A stretch of DNA of 40,724 bases. Source: a virus (taxonomy: Duplodnaviria > Heunggongvirae > Uroviricota > Caudoviricetes). Below, piece after piece: positions 3,089 to 35,393 of the stretch. The notes under the pieces were generated by a model, which made no database searches, had not been told where the DNA came from, and saw nothing but the letters and a program-made list of their open reading frames with translations. A program made the translations under genes and the position numbers. How positions within the stretch are numbered: position 1 is the first letter of the stretch; each line of letters begins with the position of its first letter. The DNA is taken from positions 1 to 40,724 of the IMG/VR virus record IMGVR_UViG_2565956726_000012, one strand, 5' to 3'.

Positions 3089-3160
3089 AACGAAACCCGT
3101 TTATTTGCAAACACCCTGCTTCAGGAAAAGTATACCGCGCAACAACACACCATTTACGGT

Positions 3161-5623
3161 TCAATTCCCTGTTAATTGCAAAACTTGCTCTTCCAGCTTT
3201 TTAACCCTGCGTCTCATCATCGCAGATTCCAGAATCAGAGCCTCTTCATAACGGATACCGTAACATTCACCAGCCTCGACGGCTTCGCGTACCAGAACCT
3301 TTGTCTGTATAAGTGGGTAAACTCCTGCAGAATGCTCTTCTTCCGTCACATCCCTGTATTCTGCCGGGGCCTCATTCCACTTGTCATAACAGATAAATGC
3401 CAGTCGTGACACATCTATGCCTTCATTCTGAAATACACTGATAACATGCTGCGCAACTGCACCAAAGTGCCATCTTGCTCCGTCTTTACCTTTCACTTCG
3501 ATCCTGTCAAGGTACTGGTATGAAACCCATTCCACTCTTTCCCATGCGTCCAGTATTTTCTCATCAATAACCTCTGGAGCAGTCTTGAAACGCGCATCGG
3601 ACAGCACCGTAAACGCTGACTGGGTAAATCCCCCCGACCATGCACGACCAGCCAACCCAAGAGAATAAGTATTCGTTGTCGATGGTGTCATGGCTGAATC
3701 AGAAAACTGTATATATTCTGAATTTCCAGTAGATATTCGAATATTTCCATTTATTAGCGACATAGTGCCTTTAGTATTATCACTATTGAATAATTTCAAT
3801 TGCGAACTTATACCGCCTCCCACAGCCAGAGATACATCGCCTTCAGCAAGCATTCTGAATTTATCTGCAGAAACAAGCGTCTGGTTAGCAAGGTTAAAAT
3901 ATTTAACCCACCATTCAAAACGCCCTGACATAGTCCCAACGTACTGACCAAGCGCAGGGACGTGAACAACATTGCTATTTGTAGTGCCGTCTATACTGGA
4001 AATACCAGTCACCGCTGATGCAGAACTCAGAATATTATTTCTGTCACCCGGATGTTTAATTTCAACAAAGTTCCTGATACACCCTTCCTCGAAGGTAACC
4101 ACGCCGGAAGAACTATACATGGGGAATATTGACGCATAATTACTGCGTGCAGCATCTAAGAAACGAATGGTTGTAGATGTCTGCAGATCTCCTGATTCAT
4201 TTTTCCCATCACACCCAGTCATTAGAATATTACTGGCAATATTATTATTTCCCTGAACGGTGACGCCGTGCGCCTGCTTTGCGTCCGATTCAGAGTAATC
4301 AACCAGCACATCCGAAATCAGGTTACCAGTCCCCTTGCCAACAACTACTGCGGCGTATTTTGGGTTGTTAGCCATTACACTGCTAATGATATTATTCGTT
4401 GGGGCAGTTTCCGTCTCAGTTCCATTGTAAACAACGTGCTGACACTCTTCACCAATAACATTGCTGACAATGTTATATTTTGCTGCTGTTTTAAGTTCCA
4501 CTGCACCAAACTGAGGATAATTTCTGGCTATCACACCATCAATTAGCGTATTTTGCGATGAATCAAAAAGCACACAACCTGCTTTTTTATTATTTGCGAA
4601 CCCTAAATACTCTCCTCTTATATCTCTAACAATGTAACCTGACGGAATACCATTATCCGGATAAGCGATCAAGCTAAATCCTGGTCCTCGCGTATTTGTA
4701 AATCTGATATTTTTAACCGATACATCATGGCCACCTGAAAATGACACCTGGTGTCCCTGCACACTATCATCTGATTTATTTCCCATAATTGTTAGCGTAC
4801 TAAGCATGCCACCATCGGGCATGTTAAAAACCAGATGATTACCATCTCTGTCATACTGTTTTATCGTTCCCCCACCTGTTCCGTACAAGCCACAACGTGA
4901 AAGAGAAACTAAAGATGTATTGAATACCCCTTCCGGAACAAAAACACTGCTAAACGAATGTAATGATTTTGTAAAAGCATCCTTGTTATCATTTAAGATT
5001 CCATTTTGAGCTCCAAAATCCTTAATGCTGACACCATCACGCATCTTATCCTGGAACGTTCTGTATACCGCTCCAGAACCATACTGAATAAACCAACCAA
5101 AACCACCAATAACTCCGGCGATTGCAGCATCGACATAATTACGCATTGAGCGATTATTTACAGCGTCCTGCTCAAGTGATGGATCGGCAAGGTTAGATAT
5201 TCTGTTTTGCTTTGCATCGTAATATTTTGCAAGCAAAGATGGTTTCATCAATGCACGTCTGAACCACCCAAAACATCGCTGGATCAGCATCGTCAGGTAG
5301 TCAAATGCATCCTCATGAACTTCGGGGAAAAATTTTCCCTGATTGCGAAGATCAGTCTCCTGCACCACATCAAGCACACGCTCTATCGTGATTCGCCAGC
5401 CAGCAGCAAGCGGCGACGGAAGAACCACTGCACCGCCACTATAAGTTCCCGCCCCTGTTACCGTATAACCAGCATCCAGCACTAGTTTTGTAACGTTACC
5501 GTTAAGGTCAGACACCTGAACAACCAGGTCGGATTTTTTGAAAATACGGAAGGTATACGGAAATGATGTCGTAACGCCGTTACCTGTGTATTCGTTGTGG
5601 TCAACTTCGGTTGAGACCGTCAT
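3161..5623 (-). CDS. Tailspike/tail fiber with T7 gp17-like N-terminal adaptor domain, central beta-helix-type region and C-terminal intramolecular chaperone (peptidase S74) domain
   Basis: N-terminus NEYTGNGVTTSFPYTFRIFKKSDLVVQV resembles T7-type fiber N-termini; C-terminal SDARFK motif followed by a coiled-coil tail typical of self-cleaving chaperone domains; GGAG RBS. Confidence 0.8.
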   Translation of the reverse strand: MTVSTEVDHNEYTGNGVTTSFPYTFRIFKKSDLVVQVSDLNGNVTKLVLDAGYTVTGAGTYSGGAVVLPSPLAAGWRITIERVLDVVQETDLRNQGKFFPEVHEDAFDYLTMLIQRCFGWFRRALMKPSLLAKYYDAKQNRISNLADPSLEQDAVNNRSMRNYVDAAIAGVIGGFGWFIQYGSGAVYRTFQDKMRDGVSIKDFGAQNGILNDNKDAFTKSLHSFSSVFVPEGVFNTSLVSLSRCGLYGTGGGTIKQYDRDGNHLVFNMPDGGMLSTLTIMGNKSDDSVQGHQVSFSGGHDVSVKNIRFTNTRGPGFSLIAYPDNGIPSGYIVRDIRGEYLGFANNKKAGCVLFDSSQNTLIDGVIARNYPQFGAVELKTAAKYNIVSNVIGEECQHVVYNGTETETAPTNNIISSVMANNPKYAAVVVGKGTGNLISDVLVDYSESDAKQAHGVTVQGNNNIASNILMTGCDGKNESGDLQTSTTIRFLDAARSNYASIFPMYSSSGVVTFEEGCIRNFVEIKHPGDRNNILSSASAVTGISSIDGTTNSNVVHVPALGQYVGTMSGRFEWWVKYFNLANQTLVSADKFRMLAEGDVSLAVGGGISSQLKLFNSDNTKGTMSLINGNIRISTGNSEYIQFSDSAMTPSTTNTYSLGLAGRAWSGGFTQSAFTVLSDARFKTAPEVIDEKILDAWERVEWVSYQYLDRIEVKGKDGARWHFGAVAQHVISVFQNEGIDVSRLAFICYDKWNEAPAEYRDVTEEEHSAGVYPLIQTKVLVREAVEAGECYGIRYEEALILESAMMRRRVKKLEEQVLQLTGN

Positions 5624-5727
5624 GTTAAATCTCCAGATAGTCGCAGCACCCGTTGCGCCGCATATCTGGTTATTCTATTACCCAAAAAACCATATATGGA
5701 TAGAAAGACTGTGAATATGAATAGATA

Positions 5728-5742
5728 TTACCTTTCAGGTAA
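5728..5742. promoter_or_regulatory. Operator copy A (TTACCTTTCAGGTAA) of the ATTACC-N5-GGTAAT family
   Basis: Perfect 17-bp palindrome ATTACCTTTCAGGTAAT; lies between minus-strand TTGAAA -35-like hexamer and the tailspike gene, and upstream of the plus-strand island. Confidence 0.6.
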
Positions 5743-5779
5743 TTTTCAAAACGTGCTGGATAGCAAACAAATTATTTGA

Positions 5780-5799
5780 TACTGTATAAATATACAGTT
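5780..5799. promoter_or_regulatory. LexA (SOS) box TACTGTATAAATATACAGTT
   Basis: CTGT-N8-ACAG with AT-rich spacer and TA flanks, near-consensus; 20 bp upstream of ATG 5820. Confidence 0.7.
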
Positions 5800-5819
5800 A
5801 TTGCATGGAGAAGATTAAG

Positions 5820-6077
5820 ATGCAGCAGTATCACTATCCACTGGAAGAGGGATTTACCGAAAGGATTCACACGCCGGGAGGCGTCAGGTCACTGGTGGAG
5901 GGATCGCACTTGATGAAATTACTCCGGGATCTCGATAAGGATGGATTTAATGTCGATGGCCCACTTGCCGAACTGACTGCACTGATTAACTACGTCACCA
6001 GCTCACAGATGTCTATGCAGGATCTGCAAACACATCTCGACTATTGTGCCGAACAATTACGAAAACAAACCAGATAA
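5820..6077 (+). CDS. Small standalone antirepressor C-terminal (ANT/KilAC-like) domain protein; candidate SOS-inducible antirepressor
   Basis: 85 aa; clearly alignable to the C-terminus of the downstream Bro-N antirepressor (GVRSLVEGSHLMKLLRDLDKDGFNVDG..AELT vs GVLGLTENSLLMNLLNQLQDDGHDVSG..AELT); GGAG RBS before ATG 5820; LexA box upstream. Confidence 0.55.
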   Translation: MQQYHYPLEEGFTERIHTPGGVRSLVEGSHLMKLLRDLDKDGFNVDGPLAELTALINYVTSSQMSMQDLQTHLDYCAEQLRKQTR

Positions 6078-6080
6078 GGT

Positions 6081-6123
6081 TTGCAATTACCAAGTGAAGT
6101 GCTTATATTTACCTTTGCGGTAA
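6081..6123 (+). promoter_or_regulatory. Sigma70-like promoter (TTGCAA-17-TATATT) with operator copy B (TTACCTTTGCGGTAA) abutting the -10
   Basis: Near-consensus -35/-10 with 17-bp spacer; operator starts at last base of -10. Confidence 0.6.
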
Positions 6124-6236
6124 ATTTACATCGCACTCCTCTTGTGCCATAGTAATCGGGCACTGGCAAAATCCAGTGCCGGGATTGGCGTCCCGAGTTA
6201 CTAAGTGGCGCATACCACGCCAGACGTGGTTTTTTT
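6116..6236 (+). ncRNA. Putative structured small RNA or leader element (c4/sar-like antirepressor control RNA) ending in an intrinsic terminator
   Basis: No ORF; hairpins GGCACTGG/CCAGTGCC (6159-6180) and CGGGA/TCCCG (6180-6195); terminator at 6214-6236; lies between a strong promoter and the ant gene. Confidence 0.35.
6214..6236 (+). terminator. Rho-independent terminator upstream of ant
   Basis: Stem ACCACG/CGTGGT, loop CCAGA, followed by 7 T. Confidence 0.65.
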
Positions 6237-6392
6237 ATGCGTTAAGCACAGCTATATCCGAATTATGGTGGGCTGGGCAGGGGTCCGAAAGGACGCCGGT
6301 ACCACTTAGGCCGGTACGCCAACCTTGTCCAGTTCACCACCAGTAATTGGCGTTGCGGTGGTGATTAAAATCACTAAGTGGAGATAACCACC

Positions 6393-7103
6393 ATGGCTAA
6401 TGCTCAAACTGCCATCTTCAAATTTGAATCTGTTAACCCTATCCGTTCCATCATTATCGATGGCCAACCATGGTTTGTAGCCCAAGACGTTTGTAGTGCG
6501 CTGCGCATCCAAAACGTCACCCAAGCACTTGAAAAACTGGATGATGATGAAAGGTCTATGTTCAACATAGGGCATGAATATCGTGCAATTTTTGACAGCC
6601 GAGTAAAAGAGATCAACATCATCTCCGAGTCAGGCCTCTACACACTGATCCTCCGCTGCCGCGACGCAGTGACACCGGGCACTATCCCCTACCGCTTTCG
6701 TAAATGGGTTACAGGTGAGGTTCTTCCTCAGATCCGCCGCACCGGAAGTTACATTAAAAACTCGCTCCCGCAGGAAGAACGCATAAAGATGGTTGCCGAC
6801 CAGGTTGCAAACGCCACAGCATCAGCAGTGATGCAGGCAATGAAGATAGAGAACAAAACCTACAGCGCCCCGCTGAAGCCCGGCTACCGCAGCCTGATTC
6901 ATTCTCCGTCTGGTGTTCTCGGCCTGACGGAGAACTCATTGCTGATGAATCTGCTGAATCAGTTGCAGGACGACGGGCATGATGTATCGGGCGCGGCGGC
7001 GGAGCTGACCACCATGTTTTGCTACATCGTTGGTGTGAGCAAATGCCTGCGTGATATCCAGACGCACGCGGAGTACATCAACGACAAGGCAGGGTTCTTC
7101 TGA
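6393..7103 (+). CDS. ant: Antirepressor, Bro-N N-terminal domain plus ANT-like C-terminal domain
   Basis: Bro-N-like N-terminus (FKFESVNPIRSIIIDGQPWFVAQDVCSALRI); GGAG RBS 9 nt before ATG 6393; the GTG at 6378 in the track is an unlikely start. Confidence 0.8.
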   Translation: MANAQTAIFKFESVNPIRSIIIDGQPWFVAQDVCSALRIQNVTQALEKLDDDERSMFNIGHEYRAIFDSRVKEINIISESGLYTLILRCRDAVTPGTIPYRFRKWVTGEVLPQIRRTGSYIKNSLPQEERIKMVADQVANATASAVMQAMKIENKTYSAPLKPGYRSLIHSPSGVLGLTENSLLMNLLNQLQDDGHDVSGAAAELTTMFCYIVGVSKCLRDIQTHAEYINDKAGFF

Positions 7104-7148
7104 CAGAACGGCGGCACAGGGATGTGCCTTTAAATAATTCTGTACAGA

Positions 7149-7191
7149 TTGCAGACCGGGGGTGAATAGCGTACTATTACCTCAAGGGTAA
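7149..7191 (+). promoter_or_regulatory. Sigma70-like promoter (TTGCAG-17-TACTAT) with operator copy I (TTACCTCAAGGGTAA)
   Basis: Same -10-abutting operator architecture as copy B. Confidence 0.55.
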
Positions 7192-7251
7192 ACGGATTGG
7201 TTTCATTTTTATTAATCCGTGTAATGAACTTATGAGATATGAGGTAATGTC

Positions 7252-7431
7252 ATGCGAAACGAAAAATTGCAGATGCGTAGAGCGCAAGCTGCCGCAAGAC
7301 GTTCTTTCAATGGAAGCGTAGAGTACGTAAAAGTTACTATGGCAAAAGATCACGCAAGTCGCGTATCCCGCGCTTTCTTTGATTCTCGTAACAATAAGGA
7401 AAATTATGAGTTCGTCTGCGTCGCAGAATGA
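7252..7431 (+). CDS. Small basic protein (59 aa), candidate antitoxin-like partner
   Basis: GAGGTAA RBS 5 nt before ATG 7252; Arg/Lys-rich; 3-prime end overlaps start of next gene by 26 nt; below the 60-aa cut-off of the ORF track. Confidence 0.35.
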   Translation: MRNEKLQMRRAQAAARRSFNGSVEYVKVTMAKDHASRVSRAFFDSRNNKENYEFVCVAE

Positions 7432-7951
7432 TAAAAATCAAATTGTCAGATATAAGGGTCGAGTATTGCATACGCAAAATTTCTCGGCCCTTTGTGCATC
7501 TGATCTTGAGCTGAAGAAAGTATCTGATGCCTTTGCCCAGTATTGGAAAACGGGATACCATCCATCTCTTGGTAAAGATGCTGCATTTGCTCGTCCGACA
7601 GAAATGCTTAAACTAAATGTCAGGCATGCTCATGTCGATAACCAAGACTATATTCCAGAAGATAGTGATAAAAAACACACTGGTAAAAAATCATCTTGGG
7701 ATGCATGGAAAAATATAGCGTCTGTACAAGTAAAATGCATACCAACAAGTGATTGCTTTTTAGTTTATTCGGTAAATCACAATCGTGATGCGCTGGTTAT
7801 GTTTTTTGTTGACGCAGATGCCCACAACATAACTGAGCAAGAAGAGTTTAAAGAGGCAGCAATCACTATCAGTTATCAATTCTTTGAGAAAACAAAAACA
7901 GAACCAATGCCTTTAGAAGAAGATCTTTTTTCTGATAAATGGAAGGAATAA
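7406..7951 (+). CDS. Hypothetical protein with possible YafO-like toxin N-terminal region plus acidic C-terminal extension
   Basis: AAGGAAA RBS before ATG 7406; segment GKDAAFARPTEMLKLNVRHAHVD recalls a YafO-family motif from memory only; AT-rich codon usage; own promoter and terminator. Confidence 0.45.
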   Translation: MSSSASQNDKNQIVRYKGRVLHTQNFSALCASDLELKKVSDAFAQYWKTGYHPSLGKDAAFARPTEMLKLNVRHAHVDNQDYIPEDSDKKHTGKKSSWDAWKNIASVQVKCIPTSDCFLVYSVNHNRDALVMFFVDADAHNITEQEEFKEAAITISYQFFEKTKTEPMPLEEDLFSDKWKE

Positions 7952-7973
7952 GCCCGCGTTGCGGGCTTTTTTT
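7952..7973 (+). terminator. Rho-independent terminator
   Basis: Stem GCCCGC/GCGGGC followed by 7 T immediately after stop at 7951. Confidence 0.7.
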
Positions 7974-8045
7974 ATGGACGAAACAAAAGTCAGTGCTACA
8001 CTCATTGACGCCACATTGAGGTGGCTTATAGATGGAAATTTCACA

Positions 8046-8207
8046 ATGAAAAAAGCATTTGCTGCACTGTTCGTTTTGTTGTCTCTGGTAGCTTCAACTC
8101 AGGCCTTTGCCGGTCGTTGTCAACACGACAGCGATACTGCCGCTGACGGCTCCCGCTGCGGTGGGCGTTCTGCGGATTCCCGCCCGGGCGGCGGTGGCAT
8201 TCGTTAA
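8046..8207 (+). CDS. Small secreted Gly/Arg-rich protein (53 aa), hypothetical
   Basis: Signal peptide MKKAFAALFVLLSLVASTQAFA; GGAAA 7 nt upstream; the longer track ORF from 7959 would start inside the upstream terminator and is rejected. Confidence 0.4.
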   Translation: MKKAFAALFVLLSLVASTQAFAGRCQHDSDTAADGSRCGGRSADSRPGGGGIR

Positions 8208-8229
8208 AAACAAGGCCGCGAAAGCGGCC
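8204..8229 (-). terminator. Rho-independent terminator for the minus-strand structural operon
   Basis: Stem GGCCGC/GCGGCC with GAAA loop; on minus strand followed by TTGTTTTT. Confidence 0.6.
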
Positions 8230-8243
8230 TGTGACATGTCACA
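8230..8243. repeat. Perfect 14-bp palindrome TGTGACATGTCACA (copy 1 of the GTGACATGTCAC family)
   Basis: Exact self-complementary sequence; same 12-bp core recurs at 25642-25653 and 27907-27918. Confidence 0.8.
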
Positions 8244-8804
8244 CTACATTGATATATGATTCATAAAGTAGCTTAAAGATTTACTTCCCAGAAAAGAAAT
8301 TTCTTTTCCTGGATATGTCGCAATAATTGAGCATGACTTATCCCCGTTAGAGGTAACAAATCCTGAATAACCTACTTGTTCTTTACCATTTTGTTGCTTG
8401 GCTAAAAAGTAGAGGTAGCTTATCTTTTTGCCCTCTGGGTAAAACTCTGCCAAACCAGTATCGGTGATTGAATATTTTATTCTCCCGCCTTGAGTAACGT
8501 TTTCCATCTCAAGTTTAGCTATGTCTTTTCTGTTGTATTCAGCATTGATTTTCCTTTTGAAATCAATGTTGTTTTCAAATGAGTAGGAAGCAACAGTCTG
8601 AATAGATGGGAACACGTTTATCTGGATGCCTCCACAGTCGGCACAGGTATAAAGGTATGAATCAGATGGAATCCCCATAAAAGAAAACTGAGTTACCTTA
8701 AATTTATCGCTATCTCCAAAGTATTGAAGTTCGCATTTAACATTTTTCCCTGCAAAAGAAAATGCAGACATCAATATTGAAACAAAAAATATAATTGCCT
8801 TCAT
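8244..8804 (-). CDS. AT-rich secreted protein (cargo gene), possible superinfection-exclusion or conversion function
   Basis: Signal peptide MKAIIFFVSILMSAFSFAG; markedly lower GC than neighbours; sits after the ejection-protein genes and before the tailspike. Confidence 0.6.
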   Translation of the reverse strand: MKAIIFFVSILMSAFSFAGKNVKCELQYFGDSDKFKVTQFSFMGIPSDSYLYTCADCGGIQINVFPSIQTVASYSFENNIDFKRKINAEYNRKDIAKLEMENVTQGGRIKYSITDTGLAEFYPEGKKISYLYFLAKQQNGKEQVGYSGFVTSNGDKSCSIIATYPGKEISFLGSKSLSYFMNHISM

Positions 8805-8806
8805 TA

Positions 8807-11359
8807 TTATTTACCTAGCATGAACTGCGATGGTGGGATCAGAAAGTCGTTACCCTGCTCACGCTCAACACGGCGCTGATAACGCTCAAGAGAGCCTGGG
8901 TCAAGGGCATCTTGTATCCGGTTCAATATTAAACCATTCATCGCCGTACGAAGCCAGAACACGTTGAGGAATGGCGTATTGTCAAGTGCCGTGCGATACC
9001 AGTCACCCAAATCTGCATCCCCTCTCGTGGTCTGCTGGAGCAGCGTGATAATGCTGTCAGCGTTCGATGCTGCTGGCCCCATTAGCGACGTAACCGGCCC
9101 GGCCCCCATGCGGTTGACCTCGCCAAACATGAAGTCACCCAAGATGCCAAGACCGCCCCCCTGAGATGCGGCTGCGAGAAACGTCTTGGCATCTGCCGGG
9201 CGTGGTGTTTGCCCTTTCAGCATGAGTTTTGACTGCATGGAGATATAACCAAACATAGTCGCCCAGACAAAGAGGTTTGCAGCACCAAGGAAAGCCCCCT
9301 TCCCGTTACGTAGCAGCGCATTCGTCAGCGATCCGGTTTTCGACTCACCAAGCCCAGCAGGAATATAACCACGCCCGAATACTTCGCGTCCTAGTACGTT
9401 CTGCATGAAGCTTGCAGTGAACGATTTGTACTGACCAGCGAATCGTATTGCTTCCCCAGCCACCGTTCCTGGCACCGTGCCCATCTTCATAAACGCCTGC
9501 GTGCGATCGCCAGGCTCTGACATGGCGATATTCAGGCGGTCAAGGATGTAGCCGCGCAACTGCCCTTCCAATTGATCGCGTGCGTCAGCGATAGCGCGCT
9601 GCGTTGGTTTGATCCCCTTACTCTCTACATAACCGGCAATCACTTCGTCAGGCACGCCGCGGATGCCGCTGGTCGTCATGAACTTACGACCTTCGCTATC
9701 GGCCATGTCCATGTTGCGAAAAATTTCCCACTCACGTTCGCCAATACCGTGCAGATCCAGCACGCGTCGCAGGTCTTCCGGTAGCCGCGCATGAGACTGG
9801 TCAGCATTCTTTGCAAGCCAGTTGGTTATCATCATGGCGTTGCTGTTGCGACCGCTCTCGGTCCAGAAGTTCATGAGGTTGTACTTAAAGAAAAGCTGCT
9901 GCGCGCGACCAAGCTTTCCATTCAGCGTGTCATCACCAGATATGCGCCGGATGATTTCCTGCGTCATGGAGTCGGAATAAACTCCGATAGAGGAAAGGAT
10001 CTCTTTCTGCTCCGCGCTGTTGTAACGCGTGAAGCGGCCTCTCATAGCACCAAGCAACGCCTGCATAAAATTCTGCCCTTGGTAGCGCATCTCGGTAGCG
10101 GCGATAGGCACGTCGTTAAACGATGAGATTACCGCGCCACCAAGTTGGCTCATACGCAACCAGCCGCGTACAGCCGCCGACGCATTGGCCCAGCCTACGC
10201 TGCCAGGAATATTTAGCGAGCCGTCAACCTGCGGCATTACGGTACGGTTAATGCGACGCACCTTCGTCATGTAGTCAGCCAACGCTGCCGGTCTTCCGGA
10301 TTTGCTGATATCTTCAGCAATGGCGTCCGTCAGGTACTTAAACATGTTCTGTGGGTTAGTGCCCAGTACGCGCATCATGCCCGTTGTGCGGGCAGCGCTG
10401 TTTAAGCCACCAAACAGCGCTTCTCGCAGGCTGCCGGTGCCGAATTGCTGGTTGTACTCGTGCCACGAGATACCATCTTTGAAGTGCAAAATTCGCTCTT
10501 GGCTGGCGCGTTTAGCTGCGTTCGCCGATCCCTTAAAGCCATTCATCCAATCGGGCTTTTCAGATGTAAGATGCACGCCGGAAGCCAGCCCGTTATAAAT
10601 GTTACGCATGAACTGCTCGCGGTCAGCCACGCCGTCAAAAGTGCGCTCATCAAGGCGCGGGAGAATAGCATTTCGCCATGCTTCATAACCTGCGGCGCGG
10701 ATCTTCATGATGTCGTGTGACTGGCGCACTATATAGCCCGGCTCTTTGCGTATCCATGCCCCGGCGCGGTTCTCATCAATGCGCGCAGTTTCCTGCCATT
10801 TCATGATGATTTGTGCAGCGCTTACGGATTGCTTTGTCATACCGTCAGTTGACTGCCCGCGCCCTATGCGCCACATTGCATCGGCAATTTCCCGGTCATT
10901 GCTGCCGCTGGCGATGAATTGCACCAGCCCGGCACGGTCAAAATCGTAGTTGATACCGGAATGATACTTGCCGCGCAGTTGCGCCACCTCCGAAGATACC
11001 GACCGGCGGGCGCCGGTACGCGCATCGTTGCGGCCAACCAGCATTGCTTCAAGCCCGATATCCGGGCGGTCTTTCCAGATAGTACGAAGCTCTCTAAGTC
11101 GTTGTGCGGCAATACGGGCGTTGATTGCCTTATTGCGAGCCTCAATCTGTTTTGCCAGCATATCGGCATTGCTCAGTTCTTCCGCTGCGCGCATCGCGGC
11201 CTCTTCCAGAGACAGCGCCTCATTGGTCGCCAGAATTCGCCTAGTGGTGTCGTTCATGTCACGCACCAGCGACTCCATCTCATCGGAAGAAAGCTCGCGA
11301 CCAGCGGCAGCATTTACACTGCGCTCGCACTGCGTCAAAAATTCGTTTGCTGCCATCAC
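8807..11359 (-). CDS. Large internal virion/ejection protein
   Basis: 850 aa; in operon after the transglycosylase-domain protein; overlapping start/stop with neighbours. Confidence 0.65.
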   Translation of the reverse strand: MMAANEFLTQCERSVNAAAGRELSSDEMESLVRDMNDTTRRILATNEALSLEEAAMRAAEELSNADMLAKQIEARNKAINARIAAQRLRELRTIWKDRPDIGLEAMLVGRNDARTGARRSVSSEVAQLRGKYHSGINYDFDRAGLVQFIASGSNDREIADAMWRIGRGQSTDGMTKQSVSAAQIIMKWQETARIDENRAGAWIRKEPGYIVRQSHDIMKIRAAGYEAWRNAILPRLDERTFDGVADREQFMRNIYNGLASGVHLTSEKPDWMNGFKGSANAAKRASQERILHFKDGISWHEYNQQFGTGSLREALFGGLNSAARTTGMMRVLGTNPQNMFKYLTDAIAEDISKSGRPAALADYMTKVRRINRTVMPQVDGSLNIPGSVGWANASAAVRGWLRMSQLGGAVISSFNDVPIAATEMRYQGQNFMQALLGAMRGRFTRYNSAEQKEILSSIGVYSDSMTQEIIRRISGDDTLNGKLGRAQQLFFKYNLMNFWTESGRNSNAMMITNWLAKNADQSHARLPEDLRRVLDLHGIGEREWEIFRNMDMADSEGRKFMTTSGIRGVPDEVIAGYVESKGIKPTQRAIADARDQLEGQLRGYILDRLNIAMSEPGDRTQAFMKMGTVPGTVAGEAIRFAGQYKSFTASFMQNVLGREVFGRGYIPAGLGESKTGSLTNALLRNGKGAFLGAANLFVWATMFGYISMQSKLMLKGQTPRPADAKTFLAAASQGGGLGILGDFMFGEVNRMGAGPVTSLMGPAASNADSIITLLQQTTRGDADLGDWYRTALDNTPFLNVFWLRTAMNGLILNRIQDALDPGSLERYQRRVEREQGNDFLIPPSQFMLGK

Positions 11360-24604: not shown

Positions 24605-24641
24605 CGTAGAAGGTTGACATTTAACGCGTGAATTATTACCT
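24605..24641. promoter_or_regulatory. TTGACA -35-like element plus operator copy C (TTACCTTTCAGGTAA)
   Basis: Identical 15-bp core to copy A; lies between portal-side operon and the tRNA island. Confidence 0.5.
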
Positions 24642-24972
24642 TTCAGGTAACTAAAGAGCTCATTCTGGTTACTAACCTGACTGGCTTGTCGTTAAATTAA
24701 ACAGGTGGAGTGAGCTTTTATTTTGAGCAGTACGGCGTATGGCACATGCGCCGATAGCGGTCTGGATACGTTTAAGGGGCACCCTCCCTTGCTCGGGCAA
24801 ACGAACCAGGTAGCCGGAATGTGCAAGTCGAGCGGTTTTATTCCGCGCACGGGGATTCACCATCCCGGCGATTCGGTGTGACGCCTCGGAAGAGACGAGG
24901 GTACAACGATGAGAGCATTTATGGAGCCGCGACAAAGTGTGGCGCCTTAACAGGCTAAGTGCTCTCAGCGTT

Positions 24973-25049
24973 GTGGCATTAGCTCAGTCGGACAGAGCAA
25001 CCGCCTTCTAAGCGGTTGGTCGCAGGTTCGAATCCTGCATGCCACGCCA
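24973..25049 (+). tRNA. tRNA-Arg (anticodon UCU), phage-borne
   Basis: 77 nt cloverleaf: 7-bp acceptor stem GTGGCAT/ATGCCAC, D-arm GCTC..GAGC, anticodon loop CTTCTAA, T-arm GCAGG-TTCGAAT-CCTGC, discriminator G plus CCA; closely resembles argU-type tRNA. Confidence 0.9.
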
Positions 25050-27203: not shown

Positions 27204-27796
27204 TGATTGCCATCCTGACGTTCTTTCAGTCTCTTCCTGGCTGCCGCTATGCGATCAGCAATTGTCACATTCACATTAACATCCAGGCGTTCTTTGAACG
27301 CGTTGACATCAACATGCTTACCAATCAGCTCAAGGTTCTTCACCTTGTCAGGCCATTTAATTTTTTTGAGGATTGTCTCTATCGAATCCTCGTTCATGTT
27401 CATGATGGTCGATGACAGATCAAAGCCGCTAAGCGTAGTGCGCCAGATTTTCGGCCACTCGCGGATTGGTTTAAGGCTCCCATCGTCGTTGAGGATGTCG
27501 ATCACGTCCATCTGGTCGATCTCCACCAGGCGCATGAGAACGTAATCAGCACTGACGCGCATTCGTTTGTTGCGCTCCTCCATCAACTCGGCAATCCGTT
27601 TTTGAATGCGTTCATCGCGCATCATGACACTGGCTTTAACTGCCGCTGTATTTGGGGAGAATCCTGCGTTAATCGCTGCCTGAGTCTGGTTTTCAGGCGT
27701 TTTGATGTATGACTGGCAATAAGCCTCCTGCATTGCTGTTAGTGGCTTAAATTGCGTTGATTTGCGTTTATAGGTTTTAGGTTCAGCAGGCATCAT
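27200..27796 (-). CDS. terS: Terminase small subunit
   Basis: Conserved LTAMQEAYCQSYIKTPENQTQAAINAGFSP region; start at ATGATG 27796/27793; track extension to 27874 crosses a terminator hairpin. Confidence 0.8.
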   Translation of the reverse strand: MMPAEPKTYKRKSTQFKPLTAMQEAYCQSYIKTPENQTQAAINAGFSPNTAAVKASVMMRDERIQKRIAELMEERNKRMRVSADYVLMRLVEIDQMDVIDILNDDGSLKPIREWPKIWRTTLSGFDLSSTIMNMNEDSIETILKKIKWPDKVKNLELIGKHVDVNAFKERLDVNVNVTIADRIAAARKRLKERQDGNQ

Positions 27797-27813
27797 AACC
27801 ACCGTGGTAATTG

Positions 27814-27828
27814 TTACCGTTGTGGTAA
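27814..27828. promoter_or_regulatory. Operator copy J (TTACCGTTGTGGTAA) in the terminase upstream region
   Basis: On the minus strand preceded by TATTAT, the same -10-abutting arrangement as other copies. Confidence 0.5.
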
Positions 27829-34808: not shown

Positions 34809-35393
34809 ATGAAAAGTATCCAGGACGTCCGCAGGCAAAATCTCAACGACTTGATCGACCGTGAATTCAATGGTGTTCAGACGCGGATGGCAGAAAAACT
34901 TGGAACTCAGGCAAATCTGGTAAACCGCTGGGCTCTTGGCAAGAAGGTTATCGGCGACCAGGTTGCGCGAAAAATTGAAGCTGCCGCCAATAAACCCCGT
35001 AACTGGCTTGATATCGATCGCTCGCTTTCTCAGGAAGGTTTTCAGCCTGTCGGCCCAAGCGACATTGGTCAGCTGGCGGCTCACAACCTGGAACGCTGGA
35101 TGAGCGAAAGCCGCGACCTTTCAACGCAGGGAAAACTTCACCGCGCATCCGGCGTCGCCCAGGTGACAATCAGCCGCCTGTTAAACAATGAGGTCAGCGT
35201 TTCCATTTCCACCCTGGAGAATGTTGCATCCGCATTCGGGCGTCACGGATATGAACTACTGATTCACCCGCACGACCCTGCGACTATCAACTATGACCGC
35301 TCACGCTACGCATTGTTACCCGAAACCGAGAAAGCAAAGATCGAAAGTTACATTGAATTTGTCATCAACCAGAACGAAAAAAGCAAACAATAA
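34809..35393 (+). CDS. Prophage repressor with two tandem XRE-type HTH domains, no S24 peptidase domain
   Basis: Two HTH motifs (QTRMAEKLGTQANLVNRWALGKK and QGKLHRASGVAQVTISRLLNNE); no Ala-Gly/Ser-Lys autocleavage module; divergent from cro-like gene. Confidence 0.75.
   Translation: MKSIQDVRRQNLNDLIDREFNGVQTRMAEKLGTQANLVNRWALGKKVIGDQVARKIEAAANKPRNWLDIDRSLSQEGFQPVGPSDIGQLAAHNLERWMSESRDLSTQGKLHRASGVAQVTISRLLNNEVSVSISTLENVASAFGRHGYELLIHPHDPATINYDRSRYALLPETEKAKIESYIEFVINQNEKSKQ

Follow-up and report, generated by a model that had tools for sequence, protein, structure and literature searches.

A probable secondary immunity region in an ε15/phiV10-like Escherichia coli prophage combines two known prophage switches

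Genes and control sites of the island

We analyzed a 40,724-nucleotide stretch of viral DNA (Caudoviricetes; IMG/VR record IMGVR_UViG_2565956726_000012), hereafter the window, in which an island at 5640-8243 lies between virion/ejection-type genes and the tailspike gene. The first-pass annotation had placed it in this slot, which is like that of P22 immI, and all elements that it had listed there exist at or near those positions. The palindrome TTACC-N5-GGTAA, a predicted operator of the prophage repressor Rep, occurs exactly at 5728, 6109 and 7177, one copy preceding each of three transcription units. Protein-coding genes and sites outside the RNA elements are as follows:

5728-5742, strandless: predicted Rep operator A (TTACCTTTCAGGTAA), exact palindrome 5' of ant
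5780-5799, strandless: LexA box (TACTGTATAAATATACAGTT), 18 of 20 consensus positions, the only one in the window
5820-6077, plus: ant, small SPC32H-type antirepressor of 85 aa (homology, phrog_450 match)
6109-6123, strandless: predicted Rep operator B (TTACCTTTGCGGTAA), exact palindrome
6393-7103, plus: Bro-N::Ant-like antirepressor of 236 aa (Pfam Bro-N, 1.8e-19)
7177-7191, strandless: predicted Rep operator I (TTACCTCAAGGGTAA), exact palindrome before the third unit
7252-7431, plus: 59-aa ORF, candidate antitoxin or partner (phrog_6685 match), overlapping the next gene by 26 nt
7406-7951, plus: YafO-like protein of 181 aa with a RelE/HigB-type fold (Pfam YafO_toxin, predicted fold)
7950-7968, plus: intrinsic terminator closing unit 3 (8-bp stem with 6 GC pairs, then a T run)
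8046-8207, plus: small secreted-peptide moron of 53 aa (phrog_14503, 'membrane associated protein, moron')
8213-8230, strandless: hairpin terminator common to the island and the convergent minus-strand late genes (terminator scan)
34809-35393, plus: rep, the prophage repressor, outside the island (match to PDB 5D50_A, SPC32H Rep, E 3.5e-42)

The mini-protein ORF of unit 1 proved real, but its start, previously set at 5805, is likely the ATG at 5820, since a Shine-Dalgarno (SD) sequence, GGAG, lies at 5807-5810 and homologues align from 5820. The ANT-domain label given to it had to be dropped: the protein has no Pfam ANT (KilAC) domain and belongs to the SPC32H Ant family, sharing 89% identity with the product of the annotated ant of SPC32H and matching PDB 5D50 chain E with an E-value of 1.4e-47. 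In relatives, the LexA box and operator A stay a constant 50-52 bp apart, and the ant control region is conserved from ε15 through E. coli. Judged by homology, unit 1 is the SPC32H LexA-Ant-Rep switch, which has been characterized by experiment and structure and which ε15-like phages natively carry in this slot. The consensus promoter scan detected no canonical promoter for ant or unit 3.

Operator I, the two further ORFs and the terminator are likewise all present. The 59-aa ORF is kept as a protein, with an identical overlap, in four genera; it had no match in Pfam, NCBIfam or PADLOC and matched no antitoxin family. For the YafO-like protein, the Pfam YafO_toxin score is marginal, barely over threshold, and the predicted fold is nearest to HigB and RelE in a model of moderate confidence (pLDDT 64). 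Defence-system models matched neither protein. The gene pair recurs in the slot in four genera and is most likely a toxin-antitoxin-like translation inhibitor.

The gene for a small secreted peptide was also found as described. Read from the sequence, the peptide has a Sec-type signal (MKKAFAALFVLLSLVASTQAFA), and a promoter-like site (TTGACG-17-TATAGA, 8004-8032) precedes its gene, which has no Rep operator. Relatives annotate the product as a 'transmembrane anchored protein'. This fourth unit is a self-contained moron.

The predicted RNA-controlled unit

The structured RNA noted ahead of the Bro-N gene is real: Rfam families isrK and C4 were both matched, and the C4 fold (-43.6 kcal/mol, z = -5.0) leaves its a' and b' segments unpaired. 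The elements of this part of unit 2 are:

6081-6153, plus: promoter-like sites around operator B, TTGCAA-17-TATATT at 6081-6109 and TTTACA-17-CATAGT at 6125-6153 (consensus scan)
6160-6236, plus: isrK / c4-a1b1 leader RNA (Rfam isrK, 67.2 bits; GA 50)
6185-6191, plus: box a1 (TTGGCGT), complementary to C4
6201-6208, plus: box b1 (CTAAGTGG), complementary to C4
6214-6230, plus: leader terminator hairpin, then a T run (terminator scan)
6261-6344, plus: C4 antisense RNA (Rfam C4, 66 bits; GA 45)
6302-6309, plus: b' (CCACTTAG), in the C4 hairpin loop (fold)
6316-6322, plus: a' (ACGCCAA), in the single-stranded C4 junction (fold)
6347-6353, plus: C4 target box a2 (exact complementarity)
6374-6381, plus: C4 target box b2 (exact complementarity), overlapping the Bro-N gene SD GGAG at 6380-6383

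The Rfam c4-a1b1 model matched 6147-6199 with 44.3 bits, just under its GA of 46.7. Segments a' and b' are exactly complementary both to a1/b1 and to a2/b2, and the lengths and spacing of a2/b2 agree with the annotated P1 boxes. Among 9-10 phages, four a-box and five b-box variants shift in concert at all three positions, and b2 lies over the SD, about 10 nt 5' of the ATG, in every phage compared. In the consensus scan promoter-like sites were no commoner than in shuffles, so the pair around operator B is weak evidence; the start predicted from the 6125-6153 site falls near 6160, at the isrK 5' end, which parallels P1 P2c4/P1c4. An icd gene is absent from unit 2, as is a counterpart of the coupled orf45 of Gifsy-1 (the equivalent ORF, from ATG 6265, stops after 14 codons, 84 nt before the antirepressor ATG). 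Unit 2 is a P1/P7-type c4 antisense-RNA immI module, equivalent also to isrK-orf45-anrP of Gifsy-1.

The Bro-N gene that follows was confirmed by its Pfam domain, and its product is homologous to a ZX5 anti-repressor that has been tested by experiment. Residues 155-231 of the product match SPC32H Ant (5D50_E, E 2.2e-13), and the protein shows no relation to P1 Ant1 or Gifsy-1 AnrP.

Predicted repressor operators, proposed switching scheme and alternatives

Seven more exact copies of TTACC-N5-GGTAA lie elsewhere in the window, and with up to one mismatch allowed the window holds 15 matches against 0.68 expected, a number reached by 0 of 100 shuffles. Operator A is kept in ε15, SPC32H, phiV10 and TL-2011b, and the ε15 GenBank record labels the homologous site as a 'repressor' protein_bind. 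A site like operator B precedes isrK in phiV10, TL-2011b, Tyrion, ZX5 and prophages of Serratia and Cedecea, and the third unit is also preceded by an operator in Serratia, Cedecea, Hafnia and TL-2011b, as well as in ZX5 with different cargo genes. Comparison over six genera shows conserved half-sites on either side of a spacer that varies freely. The control sites of the island are, as had been proposed, the phage-wide palindrome, here the predicted operator of the prophage repressor, and a LexA box.

The island probably serves an ε15/phiV10-like E. coli prophage as its region of secondary immunity (antirepression), with three operator-headed units and an autonomous moron. It is a mosaic that joins two known prophage switches, one with a small antirepressor under SOS control and one with an antirepressor under antisense-RNA control of the P1 type; behind them come a toxin-like gene pair under repressor control and the small secreted-peptide gene. 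This agrees with the immI-type region suggested by the first-pass annotation, but support for an immunity role does not extend to the two ORFs of unit 3 or the secreted-peptide gene.

What this analysis observed is sequence homology, membership in RNA families, complementary and covarying boxes, and conserved operators; all binding, expression and timing in the following scheme are inferred. In a lysogen, LexA on 5780-5799 would hold ant off, to which Rep at operator A may add. DNA damage would then lead to LexA cleavage and production of the 85-aa Ant, which would bind Rep, break up its DNA-binding tetramer and derepress all TTACC-N5-GGTAA operators, resulting in lytic growth. Given the 89% identity, this would carry over the mechanism demonstrated in SPC32H, in which Ant is under LexA control (Kim & Ryu 2013, as cited in PMC7380047) and the Ant tetramer takes apart Rep, itself a tetramer that binds palindromic sites (PMC9638917; PMC9986798). 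A Rep operator 5' of ant is awkward because Ant is needed while Rep is still active, and operator A may serve weak repression, looping or nothing at ant.

Unit 2 would be transcribed from one or two promoters around operator B, the transcript running from the leader (a1, b1, leaky terminator) through C4, a2 and b2 to the Bro-N::Ant gene. In an immune cell, pairing of a'/b' of C4 with a2/b2 would hide the ribosome-binding site (RBS) and leave the second antirepressor untranslated. Short transcripts of the leader, with a1 and b1 on them, could compete for C4, which agrees with the activation of anrP by IsrK in trans in Gifsy-1, where translation was raised 140-fold (PMC4825925). In an infected cell without a matching C4, or where C4 is outrun, Bro-N::Ant protein would be produced and would inactivate Rep, which both Ant-domain proteins presumably target, through its Ant-like domain. 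The unit 3 proteins would be made only while Rep is off, and unit 4 would be a constitutively expressed secreted peptide, a moron of the lysogenic-conversion type.

Several features of the Bro-N protein argue against an alternative that we find unlikely, namely that independent cargo genes have gathered at an intergenic site that tolerates them, that Rep operators just silence this cargo, and that only ant switches, the Bro-N protein having some other role (e.g. DNA binding or host takeover). Its Ant-like domain is full-length, and ZX5 ORF4, 81% identical overall, differs from it at a single position from residue 76 to the C-terminus; overexpression of ORF4 pushed the phage lysis-ward, with lysogeny down about 1000-fold (PMC9782041). 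The domain recurs in TL-2011b (83% identity), where it is joined to P22_AR_N and controlled by arc/sar, a P22-type control module. In phiV10, however, the Bro-N protein is frameshifted within this domain, which would thus be dispensable for viable phage. Comparison with relatives bore out the earlier suggestion of a variable cassette set: the ant core occurs in 529 of 5426 E. coli genomes and the YafO cassette in 61, the remaining cassettes vary, ε15 and SPC32H have ant alone, and ZX5 carries other genes at the third position. Such variation favors the cargo alternative, yet in every element examined (P1, Gifsy-1, APSE, ZX5 and Tyrion) the gene behind the C4 module is an antirepressor gene by annotation or study, and Serratia, Cedecea and Hafnia keep the order ant, Bro-N, 59-aa ORF, YafO-like at 60-72% protein identity.

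It seems improbable that the palindrome is the site of another regulator (a Cro-like protein or late-gene factor) rather than Rep, with the island controlled otherwise. Copies cluster on both sides of rep (34691, 34739, 35451 and 35513) and also lie in the gap that separates rep from the divergent cro-like gene, and the SPC32H Rep tetramer reportedly binds palindromic sites (PMC9638917). The copies before late operons (terminase, 27796/27814; gp3 homologue, 24636) would be unusual for a lambda-like repressor, but P1 C1 normally controls numerous operons through scattered operators. The repressor-site annotations of ε15 are predictions, not experiments.

The island belongs to a Uetakevirus prophage of E. 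coli that is ε15/phiV10-like and not P22-like, closest to TL-2011b, phiV10 and ZX5 and agreeing in gene order with ε15 and SPC32H. The island does lack an Arc/Mnt-type protein (no Pfam match), as had been observed, and sar RNA is absent as well. A divergent P22 immI homologue (mnt-arc-ant-sar), with unrecognizable regulators replacing Mnt and Arc, is highly improbable and was largely refuted by family tests: despite the analogous position between virion/ejection-type genes and tailspike, and a genuine Arc-like gene, P22_AR_N antirepressor and sar RNA in this slot of TL-2011b, the island ORFs gave no matches to Arc/Mnt or P22_AR_N, sar was not matched in the island even at E <= 1, isrK and C4 are the RNAs actually present, in ε15 and SPC32H the slot's ancestral content is just LexA-controlled ant, and the backbone is ε15-like.

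Comparison with known systems

The SPC32H switch (Kim & Ryu 2013; Kim et al. 2016; PDB 5D50/5D4Z) shares with unit 1 the slot between tailspike and virion genes, an Ant of 89% identity, a homologous Rep, the operator half-sites and the distance of the LexA box from the operator. In SPC32H and ε15 ant is alone in the slot, whereas three more units follow it here, and Rep itself has diverged (E 3.5e-42), Ant being 89% identical.

Unit 2 resembles immI of P1/P7 (Oc4 operator, P2c4/P1c4 promoters, a1 b1, c4, a2 b2, icd, ant1/2) in its C4 covariance-model match, a repressor operator accompanied by a pair of promoter-like sites, a boxes of 7 nt and b boxes of 8 nt in equal order and spacing, b2 over the SD, and phage-specific box covariation. 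In contrast, its antirepressor is unrelated to Ant1/2, being Bro-N fused to an SPC32H-Ant-like domain, its operator belongs to a different repressor family, and its leader has an intrinsic terminator (the isrK form). In P1, icd is required for ant expression; as icd is absent here, C4 would act directly on the RBS of the antirepressor gene.

The Gifsy-1 isrK-orf45-anrP-isrJ locus (Hershko-Shalev et al. 2016; PMC4825925) also has isrK and C4 ahead of an antirepressor gene whose SD is covered by b2, and Rfam finds isrK, c4-a1b1 and C4 there in matching order. It differs in that the island has neither a translatable orf45 coupled to the antirepressor nor isrJ, AnrP is an ORF6N protein unrelated to the Bro-N protein, and the Gifsy-1 locus adjoins Q. 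In vB_EcoP_ZX5, an E. coli Uetakevirus, ORF4 likewise follows isrK, C4 and Rep operators, but its N-terminal Bro-N part has diverged and the third unit consists of unrelated genes. The ZX5 paper (PMC9782041) contains 0 occurrences of LexA, and the ZX5 record annotates the C4 region as an ORF and not as an RNA.

P22 immI (mnt, arc, ant, sar) is similar in map position and in secondary immunity by an antirepressor; the window is without Arc/Mnt, sar and a P22_AR_N domain, whereas the TL-2011b slot holds a true P22-type module with an Ant-like C-terminal domain like that of the island. Unit 3 is similar to YafN-YafO and RelE-HigB in its Pfam YafO_toxin match, HigB/RelE-like predicted fold and overlapping small upstream ORF. 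Its protein is about 50 aa longer, with a low-confidence insertion at residues 76-116, the partner, which matches no family, is not of the YafN/Phd antitoxin type, and what precedes the unit is an operator of the prophage repressor, not an obvious autoregulated promoter. The "different parts list" of the first-pass annotation is not a new design, since unit 1 corresponds to the SPC32H switch and unit 2 to a P1/P7-type immI; the island is a tidy yet largely ordinary example.

Location and variability of the island

The island at 5640-8243 had been described in the first-pass annotation as resembling an immI-type region, and the features listed for it (palindromes, LexA box, RNAs, ORFs, and terminators) are all present. 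On sequence grounds, its host is identified as an ε15/phiV10-like (Uetakevirus) E. coli prophage and not as a P22-like phage. The phages closest to the island are TL-2011b (95% identity, 90% covered), HEMP4, ZX5, and phiV10, and the gene order of ε15 and SPC32H is that of the window. Two genes flank the island:

3161-5623, minus strand: tailspike
8807-11359: large virion protein (phrog_684)

Next to the island, a minus-strand gene (8244-8804) encodes a protein of 186 aa that has a signal-like sequence at its N-terminus, belongs to phrog_11983, and has no match in Pfam, NCBIfam, or PADLOC searches. Last in the virion operon, it holds the place of the small gp18 of ε15 and of the integral membrane protein of SPC32H. 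A tRNA gene (24973-25046; Rfam, 73 bits) was found where SPC32H has tRNA-Arg.

Among 5426 complete E. coli genomes, 562 contain part of the island and 58 contain at least 80% of it. The ant module was detected in 529 of these genomes and the YafO cassette in 61, while the Bro-N allele of the window is full-length in 101 and partial in 475. These counts bear out the proposal that the island is a variable cassette set, with a conserved core and exchangeable cassettes. In TL-2011b (L001), an insertion of approximately 1.1 kb (3459-4547) lies between ant and the isrK promoter and is annotated, on the minus strand, only as 'similar to hypothetical protein'; an additional copy of the Rep operator is present at 4208 of the same phage.

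The palindrome TTACC-N5-GGTAA is predicted to be the operator of Rep, the prophage repressor. Exact copies are present at 5728, 6109, and 7177 (operators A, B, and I, respectively) and at seven other positions of the window, and when one mismatch was allowed, 15 matches were found in the window versus 0.68 expected. Copies of the palindrome lie on both sides of rep, including the interval that separates it from the divergent cro-like gene. In the GenBank record of ε15, the homologous sites carry a binding-site annotation, 'repressor', among them the site before gp19 (ant) and those before the terminase and gp3 operons. All three plus-strand units are headed by an operator in the prophages of E. 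coli, Serratia, and Cedecea. Tyrion and phiV10 have two units only, again with an operator at the head of each, and ZX5 has three operator-headed units whose cargo differs. Of the three Hafnia units, two were found to be preceded by an operator, and SPC32H and ε15 have a single operator, ahead of ant. Across the compared prophages and phages, the two half-sites of the operator are invariant, and the 5 nt between them are free to vary.

Palindromes also precede the late (structural and terminase) operons of the window (24636-24650 and 27796-27828), as is likewise annotated in ε15. Direct action of a repressor on such operons would be unusual for lambdoid logic and more similar to P1 C1.

The putative LexA-controlled antirepressor

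Homology of its components identifies unit 1 as the LexA-Ant-Rep switch of SPC32H. The small ORF reported in the first-pass annotation does exist, with a start that is most likely at ATG 5820 (85 aa), whereas the ANT-domain label given to its product had to be abandoned, as a Pfam search for ANT/KilAC gave no match. This protein (Ant, 5820-6077) is 89% identical (tblastn) to the product of the gene annotated as ant in SPC32H and matches PDB 5D50 chain E, 'Anti-repressor protein' (E 1.4e-47). Rep (34809-35393) matches 5D50_A over its full length (E 3.5e-42). A LexA box (5780-5799), which agrees with the consensus at 18 of 20 positions and is present as a single copy in the window, lies 21 bp before the ATG. 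The control region of ant, comprising operator, LexA box, and SD, is conserved among ε15, SPC32H, and the E. coli phages. In the switch as described in PMC7380047 (citing Kim & Ryu 2013), self-cleavage of LexA allows Ant to be made, and the repressor is then inhibited by protein-protein contact. PMC9638917 and PMC9986798 further describe a Rep tetramer that binds palindromic sites and an Ant tetramer that takes two Rep dimers, thereby disrupting the Rep tetramer.

A consensus promoter scan gave no site for ant, and promoters for ant and unit 3 were assigned by eye only. A predicted Rep operator precedes ant, although ant must be expressed with Rep active. No terminator separates the end of ant from the region of the isrK promoter (6077-6160), whereas ε15 has a terminator behind gp19; transcripts of ant made under SOS induction could therefore continue into the isrK-C4-Bro-N unit.

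A related ε15-like prophage of Serratia rubidaea (L011/L012, ~3100-3210) retains ant, isrK-C4-Bro-N, and the pair of 59-aa ORF and YafO-like gene, together with all three operators. Its ant has no recognisable LexA box before it, and its Ant is only 39% identical. This relative may have a different induction input.

The isrK-C4 module and the putative Bro-N antirepressor

Unit 2 is headed by operator B and contains two RNA elements, which correspond to the structured RNA of the first-pass annotation, followed by the gene for the Bro-N protein (6393-7103). Its features are as follows:

6081-6109 and 6125-6153: promoter-like sites, the second predicting a start at the 5' end of isrK
6109-6123: operator B, between the two promoter-like sites
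6147-6199: Rfam c4-a1b1 (44.3 bits, slightly below GA 46.7)
6160-6236: isrK (Rfam RF01394, 67.2 bits versus GA 50)
6185-6191: a1, TTGGCGT, in the leader
6201-6208: b1, CTAAGTGG, in the leader
6214-6230: terminator of isrK
6261-6344: C4 antisense RNA (Rfam RF01695, 66 bits versus GA 45; fold z = -5.0)
6302-6309: b', CCACTTAG, in the C4 hairpin loop
6316-6322: a', ACGCCAA, in the C4 single-stranded junction
6347-6353: a2
6374-6381: b2, overlapping the SD GGAG (6380-6383)
6393: ATG start codon of the Bro-N gene, 11 nt after b2

The isrK family spans the a1/b1 leader and the terminator of the leader. Unpaired a' and b' of C4 are exactly complementary to the downstream a2 (7 nt) and b2 (8 nt), the latter being located at the RBS of the Bro-N gene. 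In the annotated P1 record, the order is C1 operator Oc4, P2c4, P1c4, a1 (7 nt), b1 (8 nt), C4, a2 (7 nt), b2 (8 nt), icd, and ant1/2, and the layout of operator, promoter-like sites, a1, b1, C4, a2, and b2 recurs in the window. The position of operator B between two promoter-like sites parallels Oc4/P2c4/P1c4, with the proviso that the consensus promoter scan of the window gave no excess over shuffles (and no site for unit 3). Based on this layout, unit 2 is recognised as a putative immI module of the P1/P7 type. According to PMC8198154, C1 at the operator blocks ant expression in P1, and C4 is needed for full repression.

The boxes were compared in ten loci (window, phiV10, TL-2011b, Tyrion, Serratia, Cedecea, Hafnia, Gifsy-1, P1, and APSE-2) and, in part, in VT2-Sakai. 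Variants of the a box are TTGGCGT, TTGGTCT, TTTGCAC, TTGACCT, and TTGACAG, and those of the b box are CTAAGTGG, CTAAAAGG, CTACAAAGG, CTAACAAGG, TCACCG, and GTTAGTG. Within each phage, all three copies of a box vary in concert, as is expected where pairing between RNAs determines specificity. Such an interaction underlies the heteroimmunity of P1 and P7. As the b box of the window is unlike that of phiV10 and TL-2011b, its immI specificity should differ from theirs.

Two differences from known systems concern translation. In P1, icd is translationally linked to ant, whereas in the window no ORF enters ATG 6393, stops being present in all frames within 6360-6392. The window also lacks the orf45 coupling of Gifsy-1, where the stop of orf45 overlaps the start of the antirepressor gene, since the ORF from ATG 6265 stops at 6309 after 14 codons. 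With an orf45 equivalent of only 14 codons and without icd, C4 would act directly on the antirepressor RBS.

Gifsy-1, in which IsrK was studied, shares isrK and its terminator with the window, and Rfam isrK, c4-a1b1, and C4 matches follow in succession upstream of anrP. In this phage (L016, 34131-34329, minus strand), the published 'orf45' in the isrK-anrP interval coincides with an Rfam C4 match, and c4-a1b1 overlaps isrK. IsrK provided in trans is reported to pair with the orf45 region and to increase the translation of anrP 140-fold (PMC4825925). We infer that free leader RNA would compete for C4, which fits this effect of IsrK. Given that orf45 coincides with the C4 RNA, the models for IsrK and for P1 c4 probably describe one mechanism. 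Among the papers listed by a literature search, none links IsrK to c4. However, isrK and c4 were already noted beside a Bro-N gene in an APSE paper (PMC7313666), so this type of module was known; in view of that paper and of the c4-a1b1/isrK overlap in Rfam, no novelty is claimed for the link.

Modules of isrK and C4 are widespread (257 phage records), including Stx-converting phages and APSE, where the module lies before the antirepressor gene P43. In Stx-converting phages it is located between ninE and a gene upstream of roi (VT2-Sakai, L008, 1501-1702). As judged from these occurrences, the module is predicted to move among unrelated phage backbones. In ZX5 (L017), an ORF annotated as 'ash family protein' (2134-2247) sits on C4 RNA (Rfam match at 2120-2205) and is probably an RNA gene mis-annotated as a CDS.

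Alignments identify the 236-aa Bro-N protein as a putative second antirepressor directed at Rep. It has an N-terminal Bro-N domain, and its residues 155-231 align with the entire Ant of SPC32H (E 2.2e-13). Its identity to ORF4 of ZX5, an E. coli Uetakevirus, is 81%; from residue 76 to the C-terminus the two proteins differ at a single position, and ZX5 shares isrK, C4, and the operators with the window. Overexpression of ZX5 ORF4 lowered the prophage titre from 10^9 to 10^6 and repressor transcription by 75% (PMC9782041). No homology was detected between the Bro-N protein and P1 Ant1 or Ant2 (BLASTP E 0.15) or Gifsy-1 AnrP, and it would belong to another antirepressor family than Ant1/Ant2. 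In phiV10 (L002, 3750-4334), a frameshift falls inside the Ant-like C-terminal domain of the 194-aa Bro-N 'anti-immunity protein', and the Rep-binding part has therefore probably been lost.

In TL-2011b, the slot also holds a third antirepressor module (6456-7640, minus strand), in which an Arc-like repressor and a sar RNA recognised by Rfam accompany a 314-aa P22_AR_N protein. The last 101 aa of the P22_AR_N protein are 83% identical to the Ant-like C-terminal domain of the window Bro-N protein. Because the Ant-like domain is under LexA, C4, or arc/sar control in these loci, it would behave as a portable effector. Concerted evolution of the small Ant and the Bro-N C-terminal domain was considered and rejected, as their identity is 28-48% whether they come from the same or from different phages.

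Units 3 and 4 and comparison with known systems

The remainder of the island contains the following features:

7177-7191: operator I, ahead of the 59-aa ORF
7252-7431: 59-aa ORF, with a 26-nt overlap with the 181-aa gene
7406-7951: YafO-like protein, 181 aa, with a candidate RelE/HigB-type fold
7950-7968: terminator
8046-8207: unit 4 peptide, 53 aa, with a Sec-type signal peptide
8213-8230: terminator

The YafO-like family has few members, all of them from Enterobacterales. The YafO-like gene also comes after ant and a Bro-N gene in ε15-like prophages of Serratia, Cedecea, and Hafnia, and the 59-aa ORF and an operator are conserved there; ZX5 differs in having unrelated genes in the third operator-headed position. 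The conserved 59-aa ORF, which overlaps the candidate toxin gene, has no Pfam, NCBIfam, or PADLOC match and does not belong to a recognisable antitoxin family, YafN/Phd-type or other. A PDB sequence search with the YafO-family profile gave a spurious match only (E 0.49), and a fold search was used instead. As a best guess, unit 3 might encode a toxin-antitoxin-like translation inhibitor that is expressed only on derepression, a possibility to which we give limited credence.

Unit 4 lies between two terminators, has a promoter-like TTGACG-17-TATAGA upstream, and lacks a Rep operator. Its peptide is classified in PHROGs as a moron, membrane-associated protein. NCBIfam and PADLOC searches with the YafO-like protein and the unit 4 peptide were empty, and a known defence system is thus unsupported.

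A more speculative idea, which we consider unlikely, is that ε15-like phages have connected one portable Rep-binding domain to several independent inputs at a single locus. Alone under LexA, the domain would provide an SOS input; fused to Bro-N under the P1-type C4/IsrK RNA circuit, it would provide a superinfection or immunity-specificity input; and in TL-2011b, its fusion to P22_AR_N under arc/sar would be an additional one. On this reading, the conserved unit 3 pair, presumed to be controlled by Rep, would be a functional third arm of the switch and not simply a passive toxin-antitoxin moron. It could, for example, shut down translation and with it the synthesis of new Rep, so that lytic commitment is locked in.

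With the ant core in 529 of the 5426 genomes, approximately 10% of complete E. coli genomes would carry a prophage family induced via a LexA-controlled antirepressor and not via repressor cleavage. Many members of the family add a second, RNA-gated antirepressor on the same putative repressor-binding domain. This has a bearing on the prediction of prophage induction and on cross-talk among prophages. The series of ant, ant with C4/Bro-N, and ant with C4/Bro-N and arc/sar/P22_AR_N also offers natural material on the exchange of antirepressor modules across phage families.

P22-type immI regions have the ribbon-helix-helix repressors Arc and/or Mnt, for which no island ORF gave a Pfam match; sar RNA was not found in the window even at E <= 1, although this search does recover it from TL-2011b. 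The candidate antirepressor of unit 2 has a Bro-N domain and no P22_AR_N, which is present in TL-2011b gp42. In ε15 and SPC32H, ant is the sole gene in the slot. With the SPC32H switch, the window shares a small (~86 aa) Ant homologue, a LexA box by ant, and a cognate two-domain Rep from the same phage. The immI-type reading is correct in part: the island is a putative antirepressor region that lacks Arc/Mnt and has predicted Rep operators and a LexA box, but its parts come from two known systems in tandem, plus cargo. Taken one by one, these parts are already known.
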